In this document: one piece after another, positions 55,869 to 64,000 of the stretch
How the letters are laid out: the number at the start of each line of letters is the position of its first letter
Numbering within the stretch: position 1 is the first letter of the stretch
Assembly: GCF_030384885.1 (NCBI RefSeq)
Contig: NZ_CP128613.1
Strand: one strand, 5' to 3'
DNA length: 64,000 nucleotides
Origin: Escherichia coli
GTDB taxonomy: Bacteria; Pseudomonadota; Gammaproteobacteria; Enterobacterales; Enterobacteriaceae
Translations under genes and position numbers: made by a program
Notes under the pieces: generated by a model
What the model was told of the DNA's origin: nothing
The model's database searches: none
The model's input: only the letters and a program-made list of their open reading frames with translations

Positions 55869-56954
55869 ATGAAGACGTTTCCTTTGCAAAGCCTGACGCT
55901 TATTGAAGCGCAGCAAAAGCAGTTTGCGTTGGTGGATACGATTTGCCGCCATTTTCCCGGCGCGGAGTTTCTTACCCGCGGGGATTTAGGCTTAACGCCG
56001 GGGCTGAATCAACCGCGCATTACTCAGCGTGTGGAGCAGGTGCTGGCTGATGCGTTTCATGCGCCAGCGGCGGCGCTGGTGCAGGGCGCGGGTACTGGAG
56101 CAATTCGCGTCGGGCTGGCAGCTTTGCTCAAATCGGGGCAGCGTCTTCTGGTGCATGACGCGCCTGTTTACCCGACGACTCAGGTCATTATTGAGCAGAT
56201 GGGGCTGACGCTTATTACAGCTGATTTCAACGACCTGTCGGCGCTTAAAGAGGCCATTGAAGAGCAACAACCTGATGCCGCGCTGGTGCAGCATACGCGC
56301 CAGCAGCCGCAGGACAGCTATGTACTGGCAGATGTGCTGGCAACGCTGCGCGCAGCAGGTGTTCCAGCCTTAACCGATGACAACTATGCGGTGATGAAGG
56401 TGGCGCGCATTGGCTGTGAATGCGGCGCGAATGTTTCGACATTCTCCTGTTTCAAGCTGTTTGGACCAGAGGGTGTTGGCGCGGTGGTAGGCGATGCCGA
56501 TGTTATCAACCGTATTCGCGCTACGCTTTACTCTGGCGGCAGCCAGATTCAGGGCTCACAGGCGCTGGAAGTCTTGCGTGGTTTGGTGTTTGCGCCAGTG
56601 ATGCACGCGGTGCAGGCGGGGGTATCTGAACGGTTGCTGGCTTTACTTAACGGTGGCGCAGTGGCGGAAGTGAAAAGCGCGGTGATTGCCAATGCGCAGT
56701 CGAAGGTGTTGATTGTGGAGTTTCATCAACCGATTGCCGCCAGAGTGCTTAAAGAGGCGCAAAAGCGCGGCGCGTTGCCTTACCCGGTTGGTGCAGAGTC
56801 GAAATATGAGATCCCGCCGCTTTTTTATCGCCTTTCCGGAACGTTTCGCCAGGCGAATCCGCAATTAGAACATTGTGCGATTCGTATTAACCCGAATCGC
56901 AGCGGTGATGAGACGGTATTGCGGATTTTGCGCGAGAGTATTGCCAGCGTTTAA
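55869..56954 (+). CDS. yhfS: Putative PLP-dependent enzyme YhfS
   Basis: 361 aa; MKTFPLQSLTLIEAQQKQFALVDTICRHFPGAEFLTRGDLGLTPG... Confidence 0.8.
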   Translation: MKTFPLQSLTLIEAQQKQFALVDTICRHFPGAEFLTRGDLGLTPGLNQPRITQRVEQVLADAFHAPAAALVQGAGTGAIRVGLAALLKSGQRLLVHDAPVYPTTQVIIEQMGLTLITADFNDLSALKEAIEEQQPDAALVQHTRQQPQDSYVLADVLATLRAAGVPALTDDNYAVMKVARIGCECGANVSTFSCFKLFGPEGVGAVVGDADVINRIRATLYSGGSQIQGSQALEVLRGLVFAPVMHAVQAGVSERLLALLNGGAVAEVKSAVIANAQSKVLIVEFHQPIAARVLKEAQKRGALPYPVGAESKYEIPPLFYRLSGTFRQANPQLEHCAIRINPNRSGDETVLRILRESIASV

Positions 56955-56992
56955 TTCTGGGAACGATGTTTTCGCAGAGTATGGAGAAAAAT

Positions 56993-57018
56993 ACGCCCTC
57001 GGAAAATTCAGAGGGCGT
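56993..57018 (-). terminator. Hairpin terminator between convergent yhfS and yhfL
   Basis: ACGCCCTC-ggaaaattca-GAGGGCGT, an 8 bp stem; T-run on the minus strand downstream of the yhfL stop. Confidence 0.55.
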
Positions 57019-57058
57019 TAGCTCATTAAATCGGTGTTAGCCGATTTCTGTCAGAGAC

Positions 57059-57226
57059 TTACTGTGCAGTAGGACCGCAACCGCCAATGATTTTAGAAAT
57101 AGAAATTGCTGGGTGCAGCAGGTAGTCGTAAGAGCAGTTCTTATCACGGTTTTCAATATGACCAGTACATGCAGTTAACGTAGCCAGTACCGCACCAACC
57201 AGTGCAACTTTAATAAATTTGTTCAT
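57059..57226 (-). CDS. yhfL: Small lipoprotein YhfL (55 aa)
   Basis: Translated by hand from the reverse strand: MNKFIKVALVGAVLATLTACTGHIENRDKNCSYDYLLHPAISISKIIGGCGPTAQ, with lipobox LTAC. Absent from the ORF track because it is under 60 aa. Confidence 0.85.
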   Translation of the reverse strand: MNKFIKVALVGAVLATLTACTGHIENRDKNCSYDYLLHPAISISKIIGGCGPTAQ

Positions 57227-57472: not shown

Positions 57473-58846
57473 TTAATGGTTAGAGAACCAGTTCAATTTA
57501 TCGCGCAGGCTAACGACCCGACCAATAATAATTAATGAGGGGCTGTTCATTTGCTGCGCCAGCTCGCCCAGTTGCGAGAGCGTACCGTCAATCACGCGTT
57601 GCGTTACCGCCGTACCGTTTTCGACAATCGCCACCGGCATTTCGCCAGGCATTCCGTGTTCAATCAGTTTTTGCTGAATGGTCGCGGCCTGATTCAGCCC
57701 CATATAGAACACTAGCGTCTGTTTTTCGGCTGCCAGGTTTTCCCAGTCCAGCTCGCCACCGGTTTTTAAGTGTCCGGTGATTAAGCGCACGCTCTGAGCA
57801 TAATCGCGATGCGTGAGGGGAATGCCCGAATAGGCAGAGCAACCAGACGCTGCGGTAATACCCGGAACTACTGAGAACGGAATACCCGCATTGCACAGTG
57901 TTTCAAGCTCTTCGCCACCACGGCCAAAAATAAACGGATCGCCGCCTTTCAGCCGCACCACGCGTTTACCTTTTTGCGCTTCCCGCAGCAGGATCTGGTT
58001 AATCTCTTCCTGCGGTACGCAGTGATACCCCGCGCGTTTACCGACGAAGACACGATCCGCATCGCGCCGTACCAGATTCATAATATCGTCTGAAACCAGA
58101 CGGTCGTAGACCACCACATCTGCCTGCTGAATTTGTTGCAGACCTTTTAGTGTCAGCAGACCGGCATCGCCCGGACCTGCGCCAACCAGCACCACTTCAC
58201 CGCGATGATCGAGCGGTTCATTGATTAACTGTTCGGTCGTTTCGGTAATGGCTTTCTGATCGTTGTTCGCCAGCGACTGCGCCAGGCGATCATTAACGAA
58301 CAGTTTTTCCCAGAAACGGCGACGTTCACCCATCGTGGCGAACTGTCGTTTGACCCGACCGCGTAACTGCCCCGCATATTTTGCTACCTGGCCGAGATGC
58401 AGCGGCAGCAGTGATTCAAGTTTTTCGCGCAACAGTCGCGCCAGAACCGGAGAGGTGCCGCCAGAGGAGACCGCTACCATGAGAGGGGAGCGGTCAATAA
58501 TCGACGGCATAATAAAGCTGGCGGCTTTCGGCGCATCGACCACGTTACAGAAGATACGACGAGATTCGGCGGCTTCGCTGACACGCTGGTTAAGCGCGTC
58601 ATCATCCGTCGCCGCAATTGCCAGCCAGCAGGTGTCGAGAAGGCTTTCATCAAATGGCCCTTCGACGAGGGTTAACATGCCTGCATCTGCCCATGCGGTG
58701 AACTGTGGAATAAACGCTAATGCATTCACCGTTAAGCGAGCACCTGCGTCTAACAGCAACCTTGCTTTGCGTTCCGCGACATCACCACCGCCGACAATCA
58801 AACAGTCGCGGTCGCGTAATTGGCAAAATATAGGCAAATGATCCAC
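57473..58846 (-). CDS. cysG: Siroheme synthase (multifunctional)
   Basis: 457 aa; [43 protein letters not shown]... Confidence 0.96.
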
Positions 58847-58864: not shown

Positions 58865-59671
58865 TTAACCGGCAGCCGTTTCAGTTTGATTAAATTTGTC
58901 CGCAACCGGACGATTAGCTTTCGGCGTAGCATACCAATAACCCAATCCCATGAATACGGCACCCGATAAAGTATTACCCAGCGTCACCCACAGCAGGTTA
59001 TGACCAATACCCGCCAGCGTGTAGGCTTCGCTGTGGTTGCCGAACCATGAGAGCGCGAACAGCGTCATGTTAGCGATGGAGTGCTCGTAACCGGACGCAA
59101 TAAACGCCAGCAGACACCACCAGATTGCGATAAATTTCGCCGCGCCTTCAGTACGCAGTGCCATCCAGATTGCCAGACAAACCAGCCAGTTACACAATGC
59201 GCCTTTGAAGAACAGTACCATTGCCGGTGCGGTGGTTTTAGCCAGCGCGACGGAGTGAACAATACTGGTATCTACTGGCAAAAGGCTACCACCGCCCCAG
59301 CTATAAAGCATGGCAACAAAGACGGAACCGACCAGGTTACCCAGCCAGGTTTGCGGCAGGATTGCCCACATTTGCCCGTGGCTAATGGTGCCCGCTTTCA
59401 CCCCAAAGGTGAGGAACATGGTGTGTCCGGTGAACAGTTCAGAACCGGCGATAATGACCAGCGTTAAGGCGATACCGAAGGTCGCGCCCATCACCAGAGG
59501 ACGTACGGACGGATCGAGCAAATTACCGAGCGTGAAAATCAGGATGATCCCCAGCCCCACATACGCGCCCGCCATCGCGGAGCTTACCCAGAAGCCGAGC
59601 GGGTTATTTGCCGACAGGCGTGCAATGCGCGCAGCGTTAGCCGCACACTTATTAATAGTGTCTGTAAACAT
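58865..59671 (-). CDS. nirC: Nitrite transporter NirC (FNT family)
   Basis: 268 aa membrane protein; MFTDTINKCAANAARIARLSANNPLGFWVSSAMAGAYVGLGI... Confidence 0.95.
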   Translation of the reverse strand: MFTDTINKCAANAARIARLSANNPLGFWVSSAMAGAYVGLGIILIFTLGNLLDPSVRPLVMGATFGIALTLVIIAGSELFTGHTMFLTFGVKAGTISHGQMWAILPQTWLGNLVGSVFVAMLYSWGGGSLLPVDTSIVHSVALAKTTAPAMVLFFKGALCNWLVCLAIWMALRTEGAAKFIAIWWCLLAFIASGYEHSIANMTLFALSWFGNHSEAYTLAGIGHNLLWVTLGNTLSGAVFMGLGYWYATPKANRPVADKFNQTETAAG

Positions 59672-59797
59672 TTGATTATCCTTTAAAAAATAAAAACAAA
59701 AAATAAAACAAAAAGTTTAAAAAATGTCCTGCAATATACTTAAGGTCATTACAGGACAATGCAAAAAGGGGAGGCATTGCGCCTCCCGTTAAAACAA

Positions 59798-60124
59798 TTA
59801 ACCGCGTAGCTGTACCACGCCGTCTTTCACTCGTGCCTCGTAATGCTTGACGGAAAACTGTTCATCTTCCATGCATAAACCGTCGCTTAAGCGAAAACGC
59901 TGTTTTTTCAGCGGACTGGCGACCCACAGCTCGCCCTGGTGTTCCGCAATCAGCCCGCGTGACAGCACGCTGGATTCGAAGAACGGATCGATGTTGCTGA
60001 TCGCAAACACCTGGTCGCTGTGATACGGGCGGAAAATCGCTACCTGCTCGTCACCTAACAGCGCGCAGACGCCGGTTTCAGGCAGGATGTCATCAATTTT
60101 GCAGATGTCTTTCCACTGGCTCAT
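59798..60124 (-). CDS. nirD: Nitrite reductase (NADH) small subunit
   Basis: 108 aa; MSQWKDICKIDDILPETGVCALLGDEQVAIFRPY..., Rieske-like. Confidence 0.95.
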   Translation of the reverse strand: MSQWKDICKIDDILPETGVCALLGDEQVAIFRPYHSDQVFAISNIDPFFESSVLSRGLIAEHQGELWVASPLKKQRFRLSDGLCMEDEQFSVKHYEARVKDGVVQLRG

Positions 60125-62664
60125 GCGTTGTCCTCCACCAGAGTTACCGGGATACGTTCATACGGCGTTGCCGGACGGTGCTGTTCGCGCTCTGGCACCA
60201 TCTGCACGTTCGGGTCACGCTTATCGCTGTTGATGAAGTGTTTGAAGCGAGTCTGCGCAGACGGCGTATTGACCGTTTCAGTCCACTCACACACTACCGC
60301 TTCACGCAGGCGCGCCATCTCTTCTTCCAGATGTGCGTTCAGCCCCAGCTTGTCGTCAATGATCACCGCTTTCAGGTAATCGATGCCGCCTTCGAGGTTT
60401 TCTAACCACGGTGCGGTACGCGTCAGTTTGTCGGCAGTACGGATGTAGAACATCATGAAGCGGTCAAGATATTTGATCAGCGTTTCGCGATCGATATCCG
60501 CTGCCAGCAGATCCGCATGACGCGGTTTCATGCCGCCGTTACCGCACACATACAGGTTCCAGCCTTTTTCAGTGGCGATAATACCCACATCTTTACCCTG
60601 AGCTTCTGAACATTCACGGGTACAGCCGGAGACACCGAACTTCATTTTGTGCGGCGTACGGATGCCTTTGTAGCGGTTTTCCAGTTCCACGCCGAGGCCG
60701 ACGCTGTCGCCAACGCCGTAGCGGCACCAGGTGCTACCCACGCAGGTTTTCGCCATACGCAGTGCTTTCGCATACGCATGACCGGTTTCGAAACCTGCTT
60801 CAATCAGCTGACGCCAGATCTCCGGCAGATCGTCTTTCTGTGCGCCAAACATCGCCAGACGCTGGGAGCCGGTGATTTTGGTGTAGAGATTAAATTCACG
60901 CGCGATACGACCCACTGCCATCAGCCCTTCTGGGGTGATTTCACCACCCGGAGAACGCGGGATCACCGAGTAGGTACCGTCTTTCTGGATGTTAGCGAGG
61001 AAGTTGTCGTTAGAATCCTGCAGCGGAGTATGTTCCGGCTTCAGAATGTATTCGTTCCAGCAGGAGGCCAGCAGCGAACCGACGGTCGGTTTACAAACCT
61101 CACAACCGTAGCCTTTACCGTGTTTCGCCAGCAGTTCTTCGAAGGTTTTAATGCCTTCAACGCGGATCAAATGGAACAGTTCCTGACGCGAATAAGCAAA
61201 GTGTTCGCACAGGTTATTGTTAACTTCGATACCCTGTTTTGCCAGTTCCGCGTTCAGTACCTGAGTGACCAGCGGGATACAGCCACCGCAGCCAGTACCC
61301 GCTTTGGTTTCGGCTTTCAGCGCCGCAACGGTGTGGCAGCCTTTGTTGATGGCAGCAATCAGATCGCCTTTGGTGACGTCGAAGCAGGAGCAGATTTGCG
61401 CGCTGTCCGGCAGTTTATCAACACCGATAGACGGCTTGCCGCTACCTGAGTGCGCCGGCAGGATCAGGGAATCCGGGTTTTCCGGCAGTTCGATTGCGTT
61501 CAGCACCAGTTGCAGCAGGTTACCGTAGTCGCTGGTATCACCCACCAGTACTGCACCGAGCAGGGTTTTGTTGTCTTCGCTGACAATCAGGCGTTTGTAG
61601 ATCTCTTTACTTTCGTCGAGGTAAACGTAGCTACGTGCGCCAGGCGTGCGACCGTGAGCATCGCCAATACCGCCTACGTCTACGCCCAGCAATTTCAGCT
61701 TGGCGCTAAGGTCAGCACCTTCAAAGGCGTTTTCGCTACCGAGAATATGGTCAACGGCGACCTGCGCCATTTTGTAGCCAGGTGCTACCAGACCAAATAC
61801 ACGGTTGTTCCAGCTTGCGCATTCGCCGATGGCGTAGATATCTGGATCGGAAGTCTGGCAGGAATCATTAATGACGATACCCCCACGCGGAGCAACGTCC
61901 AGACCACACTGAGTTGCCAGCTTATCGCGCGGACGGATACCGGTAGAGAAGACGATAAAGTCGACTTCCAGTTCGCTGCCGTCGGCAAAACGCATGGTTT
62001 TACGCGCTTCAACACCTTCCTGCACAATCTCAAGGGTGTTTTTGCTGGTGTGAACGCGCACGCCCATACTTTCGATTTTGCGACGCAGCTGCTCGCCACC
62101 CATCTGATCAAGCTGTTCCGCCATCAGCATAGGGGCAAATTCGATAACGTGGGTTTCAATGCCTAAGTTTTTCAGCGCGCCAGCGGCTTCCAGACCTAAC
62201 AGGCCGCCGCCAACAACGGCACCGCGCTTACTGCGACGGGCGCAGGATTCAATGGCGTTGAGGTCTTCAATGGTGCGATAGACAAAGCAGTCCTGAGTAT
62301 CAGAACCTTTGATTGGCGGGATCCACGGATAGGAACCGGTCGCCATGATCAGCTTGTCATAAAAAACGGTACGTCCGGCGCTGGAGTGAATCACCTTCTC
62401 CTGACGGTTGATGGTGATAGCGCGTTCGCCGACCAGAACTTTAATACCGTGTTTCTCGTAGAAGCCTTCGCGCACCAGCGACAGCTCTTCGGCGGTGTGG
62501 TGAGAGAAGTAAGACGAGAGGTGTACGCGGTCATAAGCGATGCGCGGTTCTTCACAGAAAACGGTAATATCAAAGTTGGCCGCATCAGATTTATCAAGAA
62601 GATCTTCGATAAAGCGATGGCCGACCATACCGTTACCGATAATTGCGAGTCTGACTTTGCTCAT
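60121..62664 (-). CDS. nirB: Nitrite reductase (NADH) large subunit
   Basis: 847 aa; MSKVRLAIIGNGMVGHRFIEDLLDKSD...; stop overlaps the nirD start. Confidence 0.97.
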   Translation of the reverse strand: MSKVRLAIIGNGMVGHRFIEDLLDKSDAANFDITVFCEEPRIAYDRVHLSSYFSHHTAEELSLVREGFYEKHGIKVLVGERAITINRQEKVIHSSAGRTVFYDKLIMATGSYPWIPPIKGSDTQDCFVYRTIEDLNAIESCARRSKRGAVVGGGLLGLEAAGALKNLGIETHVIEFAPMLMAEQLDQMGGEQLRRKIESMGVRVHTSKNTLEIVQEGVEARKTMRFADGSELEVDFIVFSTGIRPRDKLATQCGLDVAPRGGIVINDSCQTSDPDIYAIGECASWNNRVFGLVAPGYKMAQVAVDHILGSENAFEGADLSAKLKLLGVDVGGIGDAHGRTPGARSYVYLDESKEIYKRLIVSEDNKTLLGAVLVGDTSDYGNLLQLVLNAIELPENPDSLILPAHSGSGKPSIGVDKLPDSAQICSCFDVTKGDLIAAINKGCHTVAALKAETKAGTGCGGCIPLVTQVLNAELAKQGIEVNNNLCEHFAYSRQELFHLIRVEGIKTFEELLAKHGKGYGCEVCKPTVGSLLASCWNEYILKPEHTPLQDSNDNFLANIQKDGTYSVIPRSPGGEITPEGLMAVGRIAREFNLYTKITGSQRLAMFGAQKDDLPEIWRQLIEAGFETGHAYAKALRMAKTCVGSTWCRYGVGDSVGLGVELENRYKGIRTPHKMKFGVSGCTRECSEAQGKDVGIIATEKGWNLYVCGNGGMKPRHADLLAADIDRETLIKYLDRFMMFYIRTADKLTRTAPWLENLEGGIDYLKAVIIDDKLGLNAHLEEEMARLREAVVCEWTETVNTPSAQTRFKHFINSDKRDPNVQMVPEREQHRPATPYERIPVTLVEDNA

Positions 62665-62722
62665 TTTTGCCTCGATTTCTTTTCTATTACCGCTTACCTT
62701 AACGATTCAGCAACCCCGCTTA

Positions 62723-62736
62723 TTGATGTAAATCAA
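62723..62736 (-). promoter_or_regulatory. FNR binding site of the nirB promoter
   Basis: TTGAT-gtaa-ATCAA is a perfect match to the FNR consensus, about 65 bp upstream of the nirB ATG. Confidence 0.85.
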
Positions 62737-62749
62737 ATTCACCTTTATA

Positions 62750-62765
62750 TACTCCTTAAGGGGTA
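62750..62765 (-). promoter_or_regulatory. NarL/NarP 7-2-7 heptamer pair of the nirB promoter
   Basis: Minus strand reads TACCCCT-TA-AGGAGTA, two inverted TACYYMT heptamers with 2 bp spacing, immediately upstream of the FNR site. Confidence 0.7.
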
Positions 62766-62925
62766 TATTGCTGATTTGTATAAATTTTCTTAAGTCACGG
62801 AATTGTCTGACATTTCATTCGTGTGCAAAAAATAGACAAAATGAAAGGGTTTATAGAAATAGACGTACGTAGCGGGGTAAGTGAGGAAAAGGCCGGACGA
62901 CGATAGCGCCGCCCGGCATGAGCAA

Positions 62926-64000
62926 TTAATGAGAGGTCAGGGTGTTATGCTGACGGTGACGGCTGACGAAACCTAACAGGAAGCACATCACAAAGACGAC
63001 AGCGTACAGACCGTTTGCCGTCAGCAGCGCCGCCTTTGGACCGCTATGTTCAACAATCGGGCCGGTAACGACAAAGGTCAGCATGGTACCGATGGTCCCG
63101 CAGGTCAGGACAAAGTTAACCAGTTTTGGTGACGGTACTTTGGTTTGCTGTGAACCCAGGGTGATGATGGTGGTATAGATCGCGCTGGAGAAGAAGCCCA
63201 GGGCGAGAATTGACCACGCCATATGTGCCGGTGTTCCGGTGTTAAAGACGTACATCAGAATCGCAGCCAGACCGGCCAGTACGGTCAGAATACGTTGCAA
63301 ATCAAAGAAGCGAAGAATAAAGCTGAACGCCCACATGCCGACCATATATGACATCCAGAAGTTACTCACCAGCGTACCTGCGTCGTTCAGGCTCATGCCC
63401 AGGCCTTTGGCATACTCTGGTACCCAGGAGATAAAACCTAACTGACCGAGGATGTAGCACAGCGCTGCAATTGAGAGAAACAGTACGCCGATGCCCCATT
63501 TTTCTTTCGCTACTGGAGCATCCGTTTTTGGCGCATGTTTGCCCAGTGCCGGAAACTCACAGCCGAAGGTCAGAATAAAAATAGCGACGTAAACCAGCCC
63601 GATGCAGGCATAAACCCAGTACCACTCAATGCTGCGCGCCAGCAGAAACGCGGCGATCATTGGGAAAATCATCCCTGCCATACTGAAGAAGGAGTCGGTA
63701 AATAACAGGCGAGAACCGCGCTGACGCCCTTCATACATTTGTGTTATCAGGAATGTACCAATCGACATGGTGATGCCGCTGACCACCCCGAGAATGAACA
63801 TCGCTGCCGAGAAAAGCGCCAGGCTATGGCTGAACATCAAACCGGCAACCGCCAGCACCATCAGGAGAAAGCCAAAACGTAACTGCGTTTTCAACGGGAC
63901 GATTTCCATCAGCCAGGCATTGAGGAAGATAGAGATTAAAATGCCAGCATTGAGGAAGGTGAAGGTGTTACTCATACTGGAAACAGGCAGATTGAAATAA
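62926..64000 (-). CDS. tsgA: Putative MFS transporter TsgA, C-terminal part; the 5' end extends beyond the window end
   Basis: Reading frame is open to the window edge; in-window translation ...[36 protein letters not shown]... matches an internal region of remembered TsgA, so the ATG at 63975 is internal. Confidence 0.85.

Follow-up and report, generated by a model that had tools for sequence, protein, structure and literature searches.

The products of the nirBDC-cysG operon are a cytoplasmic NADH-dependent nitrite reductase, the nitrite transporter NirC and sirohaem synthase. Its promoter in Escherichia coli K-12 (pnir or pnirB) is the closest described system for the locus studied here (Tyson et al. 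1993/1994, Wu et al. 1998, Browning et al. 2000/2004/2008). An FNR site at -41.5 has been listed for the operon (PMC3688515), and its transcription start lies 23/24 nt ahead of the ATG, with TAAGGT as -10 element (PMC4216584). NarL bound at -69.5 clashes with IHF at -88, displaces it and relieves the repression by Fis (PMC10853779). The consensus for the NarL/NarP heptamer is TACYYMT (PMC4886647). One heptamer of this type, TACCCCT, occurs at narG -89, and NarL has a high affinity for the palindromic 7-2-7 site built from it (PMC4549865).

A second E. coli promoter of similar design, pnrf, belongs to another locus and has another sequence. Its NarL/NarP site is found at -74.5 rather than -69.5 and there is an additional input from NsrR. 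Like pnir it is FNR-dependent with the FNR site at -41.5 (PMC3688515), and NarL/NarP induce it further while nucleoid-associated proteins restrain it (PMC5434802).

We analysed a stretch of 64,000 nucleotides of E. coli DNA, to which we refer as the window. A preliminary description of this window had assigned positions 62665-62925 to the nirB promoter, with an FNR consensus site and a NarL/NarP 7-2-7 pair, and had called the locus intact. This is exactly the tsgA-nirB intergenic region. Both flanking genes are encoded on the minus strand, with tsgA (stop codon 62926-62928) upstream of nirB, and from open reading frames and synteny the promoter thus lies directly upstream of nirBDC-cysG and downstream of tsgA. 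The genes and the terminator of the region are as follows.

57473-58846, minus strand: cysG, 457 aa, full length, 4 aa different from K-12
58865-59671, minus strand: nirC, 268 aa, full length, 1 aa different from K-12
59798-60124, minus strand: nirD, 108 aa, protein identical to K-12
60121-62664, minus strand: nirB, 847 aa, full length, ATG at 62664, 1 aa different from K-12 (L791V)
62892-62917, minus strand: intrinsic terminator of tsgA, an 11-bp G+C-rich hairpin followed by CTTTTCC, from a terminator scan
62926-64000, minus strand: 3' part of tsgA (MFS transporter), from the list of open reading frames and the annotation of matching records; the end of the window cuts the gene

Compared with the K-12 proteins, NirB, NirD, NirC and CysG are of full length and free of internal stops, so the nirBDC-cysG operon is intact in the window, as had been claimed. 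There are only few amino acid changes (1, 0, 1 and 4) despite a nucleotide divergence of 2-6% across the genes, which indicates strong purifying selection.

Some further characteristics of the region lie outside the promoter itself. The RNA of the tsgA terminator folds with -20.9 kcal/mol (z = -2.9). Two of its stem positions differ from K-12 (62912 and 62907), where an A-U pair has become G-U and an A.C mismatch has become a G-C pair, and the stem is paired at least as well as that of K-12. In the nirD-nirC spacer (125 bp) we observed a one-base insertion of T relative to K-12 at window position 59796, which is the sole indel in the 7 kb alignment. The sRNA NarS has been reported to target the translation-initiation region of nirC (PMC8139620). 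An Rfam scan of positions 62400-63200 returned noise only (IsrM, 14 bits where the gathering score is 376, E = 0.17) and an RNA element is unsupported there.

For the promoter coordinates we transferred the start point from K-12, so that +1 corresponds to window position 62688, 24 nt before the ATG. With this published start the centres of the FNR site and of the heptamer pair come to lie at -41.5 and -69.5 in the window, as in K-12. The elements are listed below; all of them are given in nirB sense, and K-12 refers to MG1655 (NC_000913.3).

62665-62688, minus strand: 24-nt 5' UTR beginning at the inferred +1 (62688), identical to K-12
62670-62673, minus strand: Shine-Dalgarno sequence GAGG, within the 5' UTR
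62694, minus strand: position -6, A in the window and G in K-12; second base after the -10 hexamer, in the discriminator
62696-62701, minus strand: -10 hexamer TAAGGT, -13 to -8, identical to K-12
62698-62711, minus strand: Cra (FruR)-like site GCTGAATCGTTAAG, -23 to -10, overlapping the -10 hexamer; 13/14 match to RSTGAAWCSNTHHW; identical to K-12
62723-62736, minus strand: FNR site TTGATTTACATCAA, centre -41.5 (class II position), identical to K-12
62750-62765, minus strand: NarL/NarP 7-2-7 site TACCCCT-TA-AGGAGTA, centre -69.5
62760, minus strand: position -72, C in the window and A in K-12 (TACCCAT to TACCCCT); heptamer position 6, where the consensus has M (A or C)
62771-62776, minus strand: AATCAG, core of the IHF I region, -88 to -83, identical to K-12
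62823-62837, minus strand: Fis consensus core GTCTATTTTTTGCAC, centre -142.0 (-149 to -135), matching GNNYAWWWWWTRNNC; identical to K-12

Both motifs named in the preliminary description were thus recovered inside the intergenic region. The FNR site is the only perfect TTGATN4ATCAA in the 64 kb window, where 0.04 would be expected by chance, and its centre lies 65 nt from the nirB ATG. A search with the 7-2-7 consensus TACYYMT-NN-AKRRGTA allowing at most one mismatch gave a single match in the window, at 62750-62765 (0.14 expected), and for the exact sequence TACCCCTTAAGGAGTA found at these positions on the minus strand (nirB sense) the expectation is 0. Both heptamers of the site fit TACYYMT, the pair is placed 13 bp upstream of the FNR site, and it is one base off the K-12 pair. 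The FNR motif had originally been quoted from the plus strand, where positions 62723-62736 read TTGATGTAAATCAA, and the heptamers from the minus strand; this is harmless because both are inverted repeats.

A consensus match does not prove function, and on this general caveat alone one could argue that the motifs are chance matches without a regulatory role. We assign next to no probability to this reading. The low chance expectations per 64 kb, the exact spacing of the two motifs to each other and to the nirB ATG, the near-identity to the experimentally characterised K-12 promoter and an architecture which is kept in 89 species effectively refute it. The identification as the nirB promoter was therefore correct: the region adjoins nirBDC-cysG and its geometry matches that of K-12.

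The region most likely works as described for K-12. Under anaerobiosis FNR would bind the perfect site at -41.5, a class II position, and from there would activate RNA polymerase at the weak promoter with its TAAGGT hexamer. This activation would be restrained by Fis, IHF and H-NS at their upstream sites. In the presence of nitrate or nitrite, phosphorylated NarL or NarP would occupy the 7-2-7 site at -69.5, displace IHF from -88 and so lift the repression. The cis elements, their spacing and conservation and the intact operon are seen in the sequence itself, while binding, start site and in vivo response in the source strain are expected by analogy with K-12. The trans-acting genes fnr, narXL and narQP lie outside the window and are presumably present in the source genome.

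The remaining elements agree with this picture on sequence. The predicted IHF (-88) and Fis (-142) sites were both found, and the stretch from -122 to -73 as well as the Fis core are identical to K-12. We take the Fis core of the window to be the equivalent of the Fis site which Browning et al. 2000/2008 reportedly placed at -142, in the upstream part of the nir promoter of K-12. A second IHF site of the K-12 promoter (IHF II) lies at -115. The consensus string RSTGAAWCSNTHHW used for the Cra-like site is said to come from Ramseier et al., and control of nir by Cra was reportedly described by Tyson et al. 1997. A scan of positions 62500-63100 for the two-hexamer sigma-70 consensus found no promoter; we did not count this against the promoter, as it is a class II FNR-dependent promoter without a good -35 element. 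A 14-mer resembling an FNR site with two mismatches, TTTATACAAATCAG, was noticed at 62771-62784 (-96 to -83, centre -89.5), where it overlaps the IHF I region. We treated it as a probable chance resemblance.

We then compared the whole intergenic region with MG1655. The alignment shows 14 substitutions in 261 bp and no indels (94.6% identity). Apart from the FNR site, the -10 hexamer, the Cra-like site and the entire 5' UTR, the two promoters share their place between tsgA and nirB, the position of the 7-2-7 site, its right heptamer and the core sequences for IHF (-88) and Fis (-142). Between -122 and -7 the only difference is the A to C change at -72, and the second change in the core promoter is the G to A change at -6. 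The remaining 12 substitutions are all located upstream of -120, two of them being those in the stem of the tsgA terminator.

The preliminary description had concluded that the promoter is regulated as in K-12 and had proposed an alignment with the K-12 nir promoter as a check. In this alignment the left heptamer diverges, reading TACCCCT in the window and TACCCAT in K-12, so that the claim, taken literally and by the standard set in that description (no divergence at the motifs), fails for the NarL/NarP site at -72. What stands of the claim is that the FNR site is identical and that both heptamers fit the consensus. As the change at -72 stays within TACYYMT and represents the majority allele of E. 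coli (see below), FNR and NarL/NarP very probably control the promoter in the way known from K-12, from which we infer identical regulation.

Window positions 40001-64000 (24 kb; damX/hofQ, the yhf genes and cysG-nirB-tsgA) are 100.0% identical to E. coli 2013C-4282 (NZ_CP027579.1) and show ∼96% identity to nearly all other complete E. coli genomes, with 98% for the next best. For the stretch from tsgA to yhfL the identity of K-12 is 96.06%. The nir part shows 95.2-95.4% identity to two other Escherichia species genomes and is thus about as distant from these as from K-12; for E. whittamii the identity is 93% and for E. albertii 90.7%. Judged by these values the 24-kb stretch looks like a deeply diverged or imported haplotype, which would account for the 14 differences between this promoter and that of K-12. 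Over the 391 bp that surround the promoter, only 20 records reached 99% identity to the window, and the records which we sampled ranged from 96.2 to 97.2%.

To obtain the allele frequencies we searched 5426 complete E. coli genomes with 45-mers in which the variant base is central, so that the 28-base word of megablast must contain the variant. Queries of 115 bp could not split the alleles, as one mismatch corresponds to 99.1% identity and remains within the top identity band. At -72 the C of the window was present in 3995 genomes (∼74%), including O157:H7, ST131 and E2348/69, and the A of K-12 in 1208. The NarL/NarP site of laboratory K-12, TACCCAT, is thus the minority form in E. coli and TACCCCT the common one, which is a by-product of this analysis. 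At -6 the A of the window was encountered in only 18 of the 5426 genomes, and these are the same 18 genomes that match the 115-bp core promoter perfectly. The majority nir allele of E. coli, as found in O157:H7, ST131 and E2348/69, has TACCCCT like the window but carries G at -6.

For the comparison with other enterobacteria, we searched the GTDB species genomes with a degenerate codon pattern of the nirB N-terminus, which is blind to the promoter. The search yielded 106 loci, 102 of them with enough upstream sequence. A perfect FNR site with its centre 64 or 65 nt from the ATG was found for 89 of these 102 species-level loci. In all 89 there is a 16-mer exactly 13 nt upstream of the FNR site, which starts with TAC in 87 cases and ends with GTA in all 89, and all 89 have AATCA at -88 to -84. 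The nir promoters of Citrobacter, Klebsiella, Enterobacter, Kluyvera, Salmonella subspecies and Rahnella follow this arrangement, both in the distance of the perfect FNR site from the ATG (64/65 nt) and in the 7-2-7 site 13 nt upstream of it. Most other Enterobacterales nir promoters also carry the TAAGGT hexamer and the CTGAATCGTTAAGG block, which is retained in 74 of the 89 species promoters. They differ in the inner bases of the heptamers, which vary (-74 to -71 and -66/-65), and beyond -120 they are largely unalignable. The layout with FNR at -41.5 and the 7-2-7 site at -69.5 is therefore kept across many enterobacterial genera.

Of the 89 species, 53 have C at -72 and the other 36 have A. 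The symmetric base in the right heptamer corresponds to C in 86 of the 89, and taken together these counts indicate that C is a normal state at -72. Position -6 is G in 71 of the 72 TAAGGT-type promoters from other species, with a Pluralibacter MAG as the only exception, and A at -6 is shared by less than 10% of the 72 distinct aligned sequences. The A of the window is therefore derived and unusual. Position -6 belongs to a block from -24 to +27 (window 62662-62711) that is almost invariant across enterobacterial genera; the retention of this block and of the FNR/7-2-7 layout is the other by-product of the comparison. By comparison, the spacer that separates the FNR site from -24 is far less conserved. 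The invariance of the block may stem from several superimposed constraints, namely Cra, RNA polymerase, RyhB pairing and the ribosome-binding site.

One of the contigs in this search was labelled Chryseobacterium sp. 18061 and carried an enterobacterial-type nirB promoter which hardly differs from the one in Citrobacter sp. 18056, a genome of the same project (loci L072 and L105). This suggests that the Chryseobacterium sp. 18061 assembly is mislabelled or contaminated.

The second base after the -10 hexamer lies in the stretch that is contacted by sigma region 1.2. One could hence suppose that the promoter is the same as in K-12 but that the G to A change at -6 measurably alters its kinetics, with a shorter open-complex lifetime and a lower nir expression, or with a changed sensitivity to supercoiling or ppGpp, in the small carrier lineage. 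The near-invariance of -6 across species and the rarity of A in E. coli speak for such an effect, as does the report that sigma region 1.2 reads a G-rich sequence (GGGA) immediately downstream of the -10 element, which makes RNA polymerase bind more strongly (PMC3526302). However, for E. coli RNA polymerase a full swap of GGGA to CCCT shifts the affinity just ∼7-10 fold (PMC3526302) and a single G to A change is expected to do little. Moreover, 18 independent isolates have kept the A, with an operon that is intact and under strong purifying selection, as seen from 1, 0, 1 and 4 amino acid changes against 4-6% DNA divergence. We consider a measurable kinetic effect unlikely. That the change represents a lineage-specific tuning of open-complex stability, and hence of nitrite reductase expression, in the 2013C-4282 haplotype and its relatives seems to us rather improbable. 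The A at -6 is a rare allele of its lineage, and we expect its effect to be modest at most. We also considered whether it creates a new -10-like hexamer and rejected this, as both candidates (GGTAAG and TAAGCG) are poorer matches to TATAAT than TAAGGT. Given the conservation from -24 to +27, the rare substitution at -6 is a cheap natural variant to test.

The substitutions upstream of -120 fall where nucleoid proteins act. Several of them (-158/-157, -133 to -131 and -123) flank the Fis core without touching it, and the intergenic region as a whole is less similar to K-12 than nirB, for which the identity is 97.9%. The core logic of FNR and NarL/NarP could thus be kept while the 12 upstream substitutions alter the repression by Fis, IHF II and H-NS, so that basal anaerobic expression or the fold-induction by nitrite differs. 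Against this we note that the Fis core and the entire IHF region from -122 to -73 are unchanged, that most of the changed upstream positions are poorly conserved across species, and that at -123 the window has the base which is found in 70% of the sequences of other species. We regard an altered repression of this kind as very unlikely, though the quantitative behaviour could differ from K-12 given the changes at -72, at -6 and at the 12 upstream positions.

We are highly confident that the region is the known nirBDC-cysG promoter, most likely working as in K-12. The system is already known and the variation is ordinary allelic variation. The outcome, a textbook promoter that had been annotated correctly and a nir operon that is intact in the source strain, matters little in itself.

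Two minor observations concern the haplotype. In the 7.4 kb which we compared with NZ_CP027579.1 the sole difference is at window position 60976, the third base of nirB codon 563, which is T here (nirB sense) and C in NZ_CP027579.1; the encoded NirB residue does not differ from that of K-12. Between yhfL and yhfS (window ∼56950-57060) the homology with K-12 ends ∼70 bp past yhfL. As yhfS directly follows yhfL in 2013C-4282, the window lacks the frlABCDR fructoselysine operon of K-12. In some other E. coli genomes the match to the query is split into three pieces that span ∼5.2 kb more, with frlA annotated under the match.
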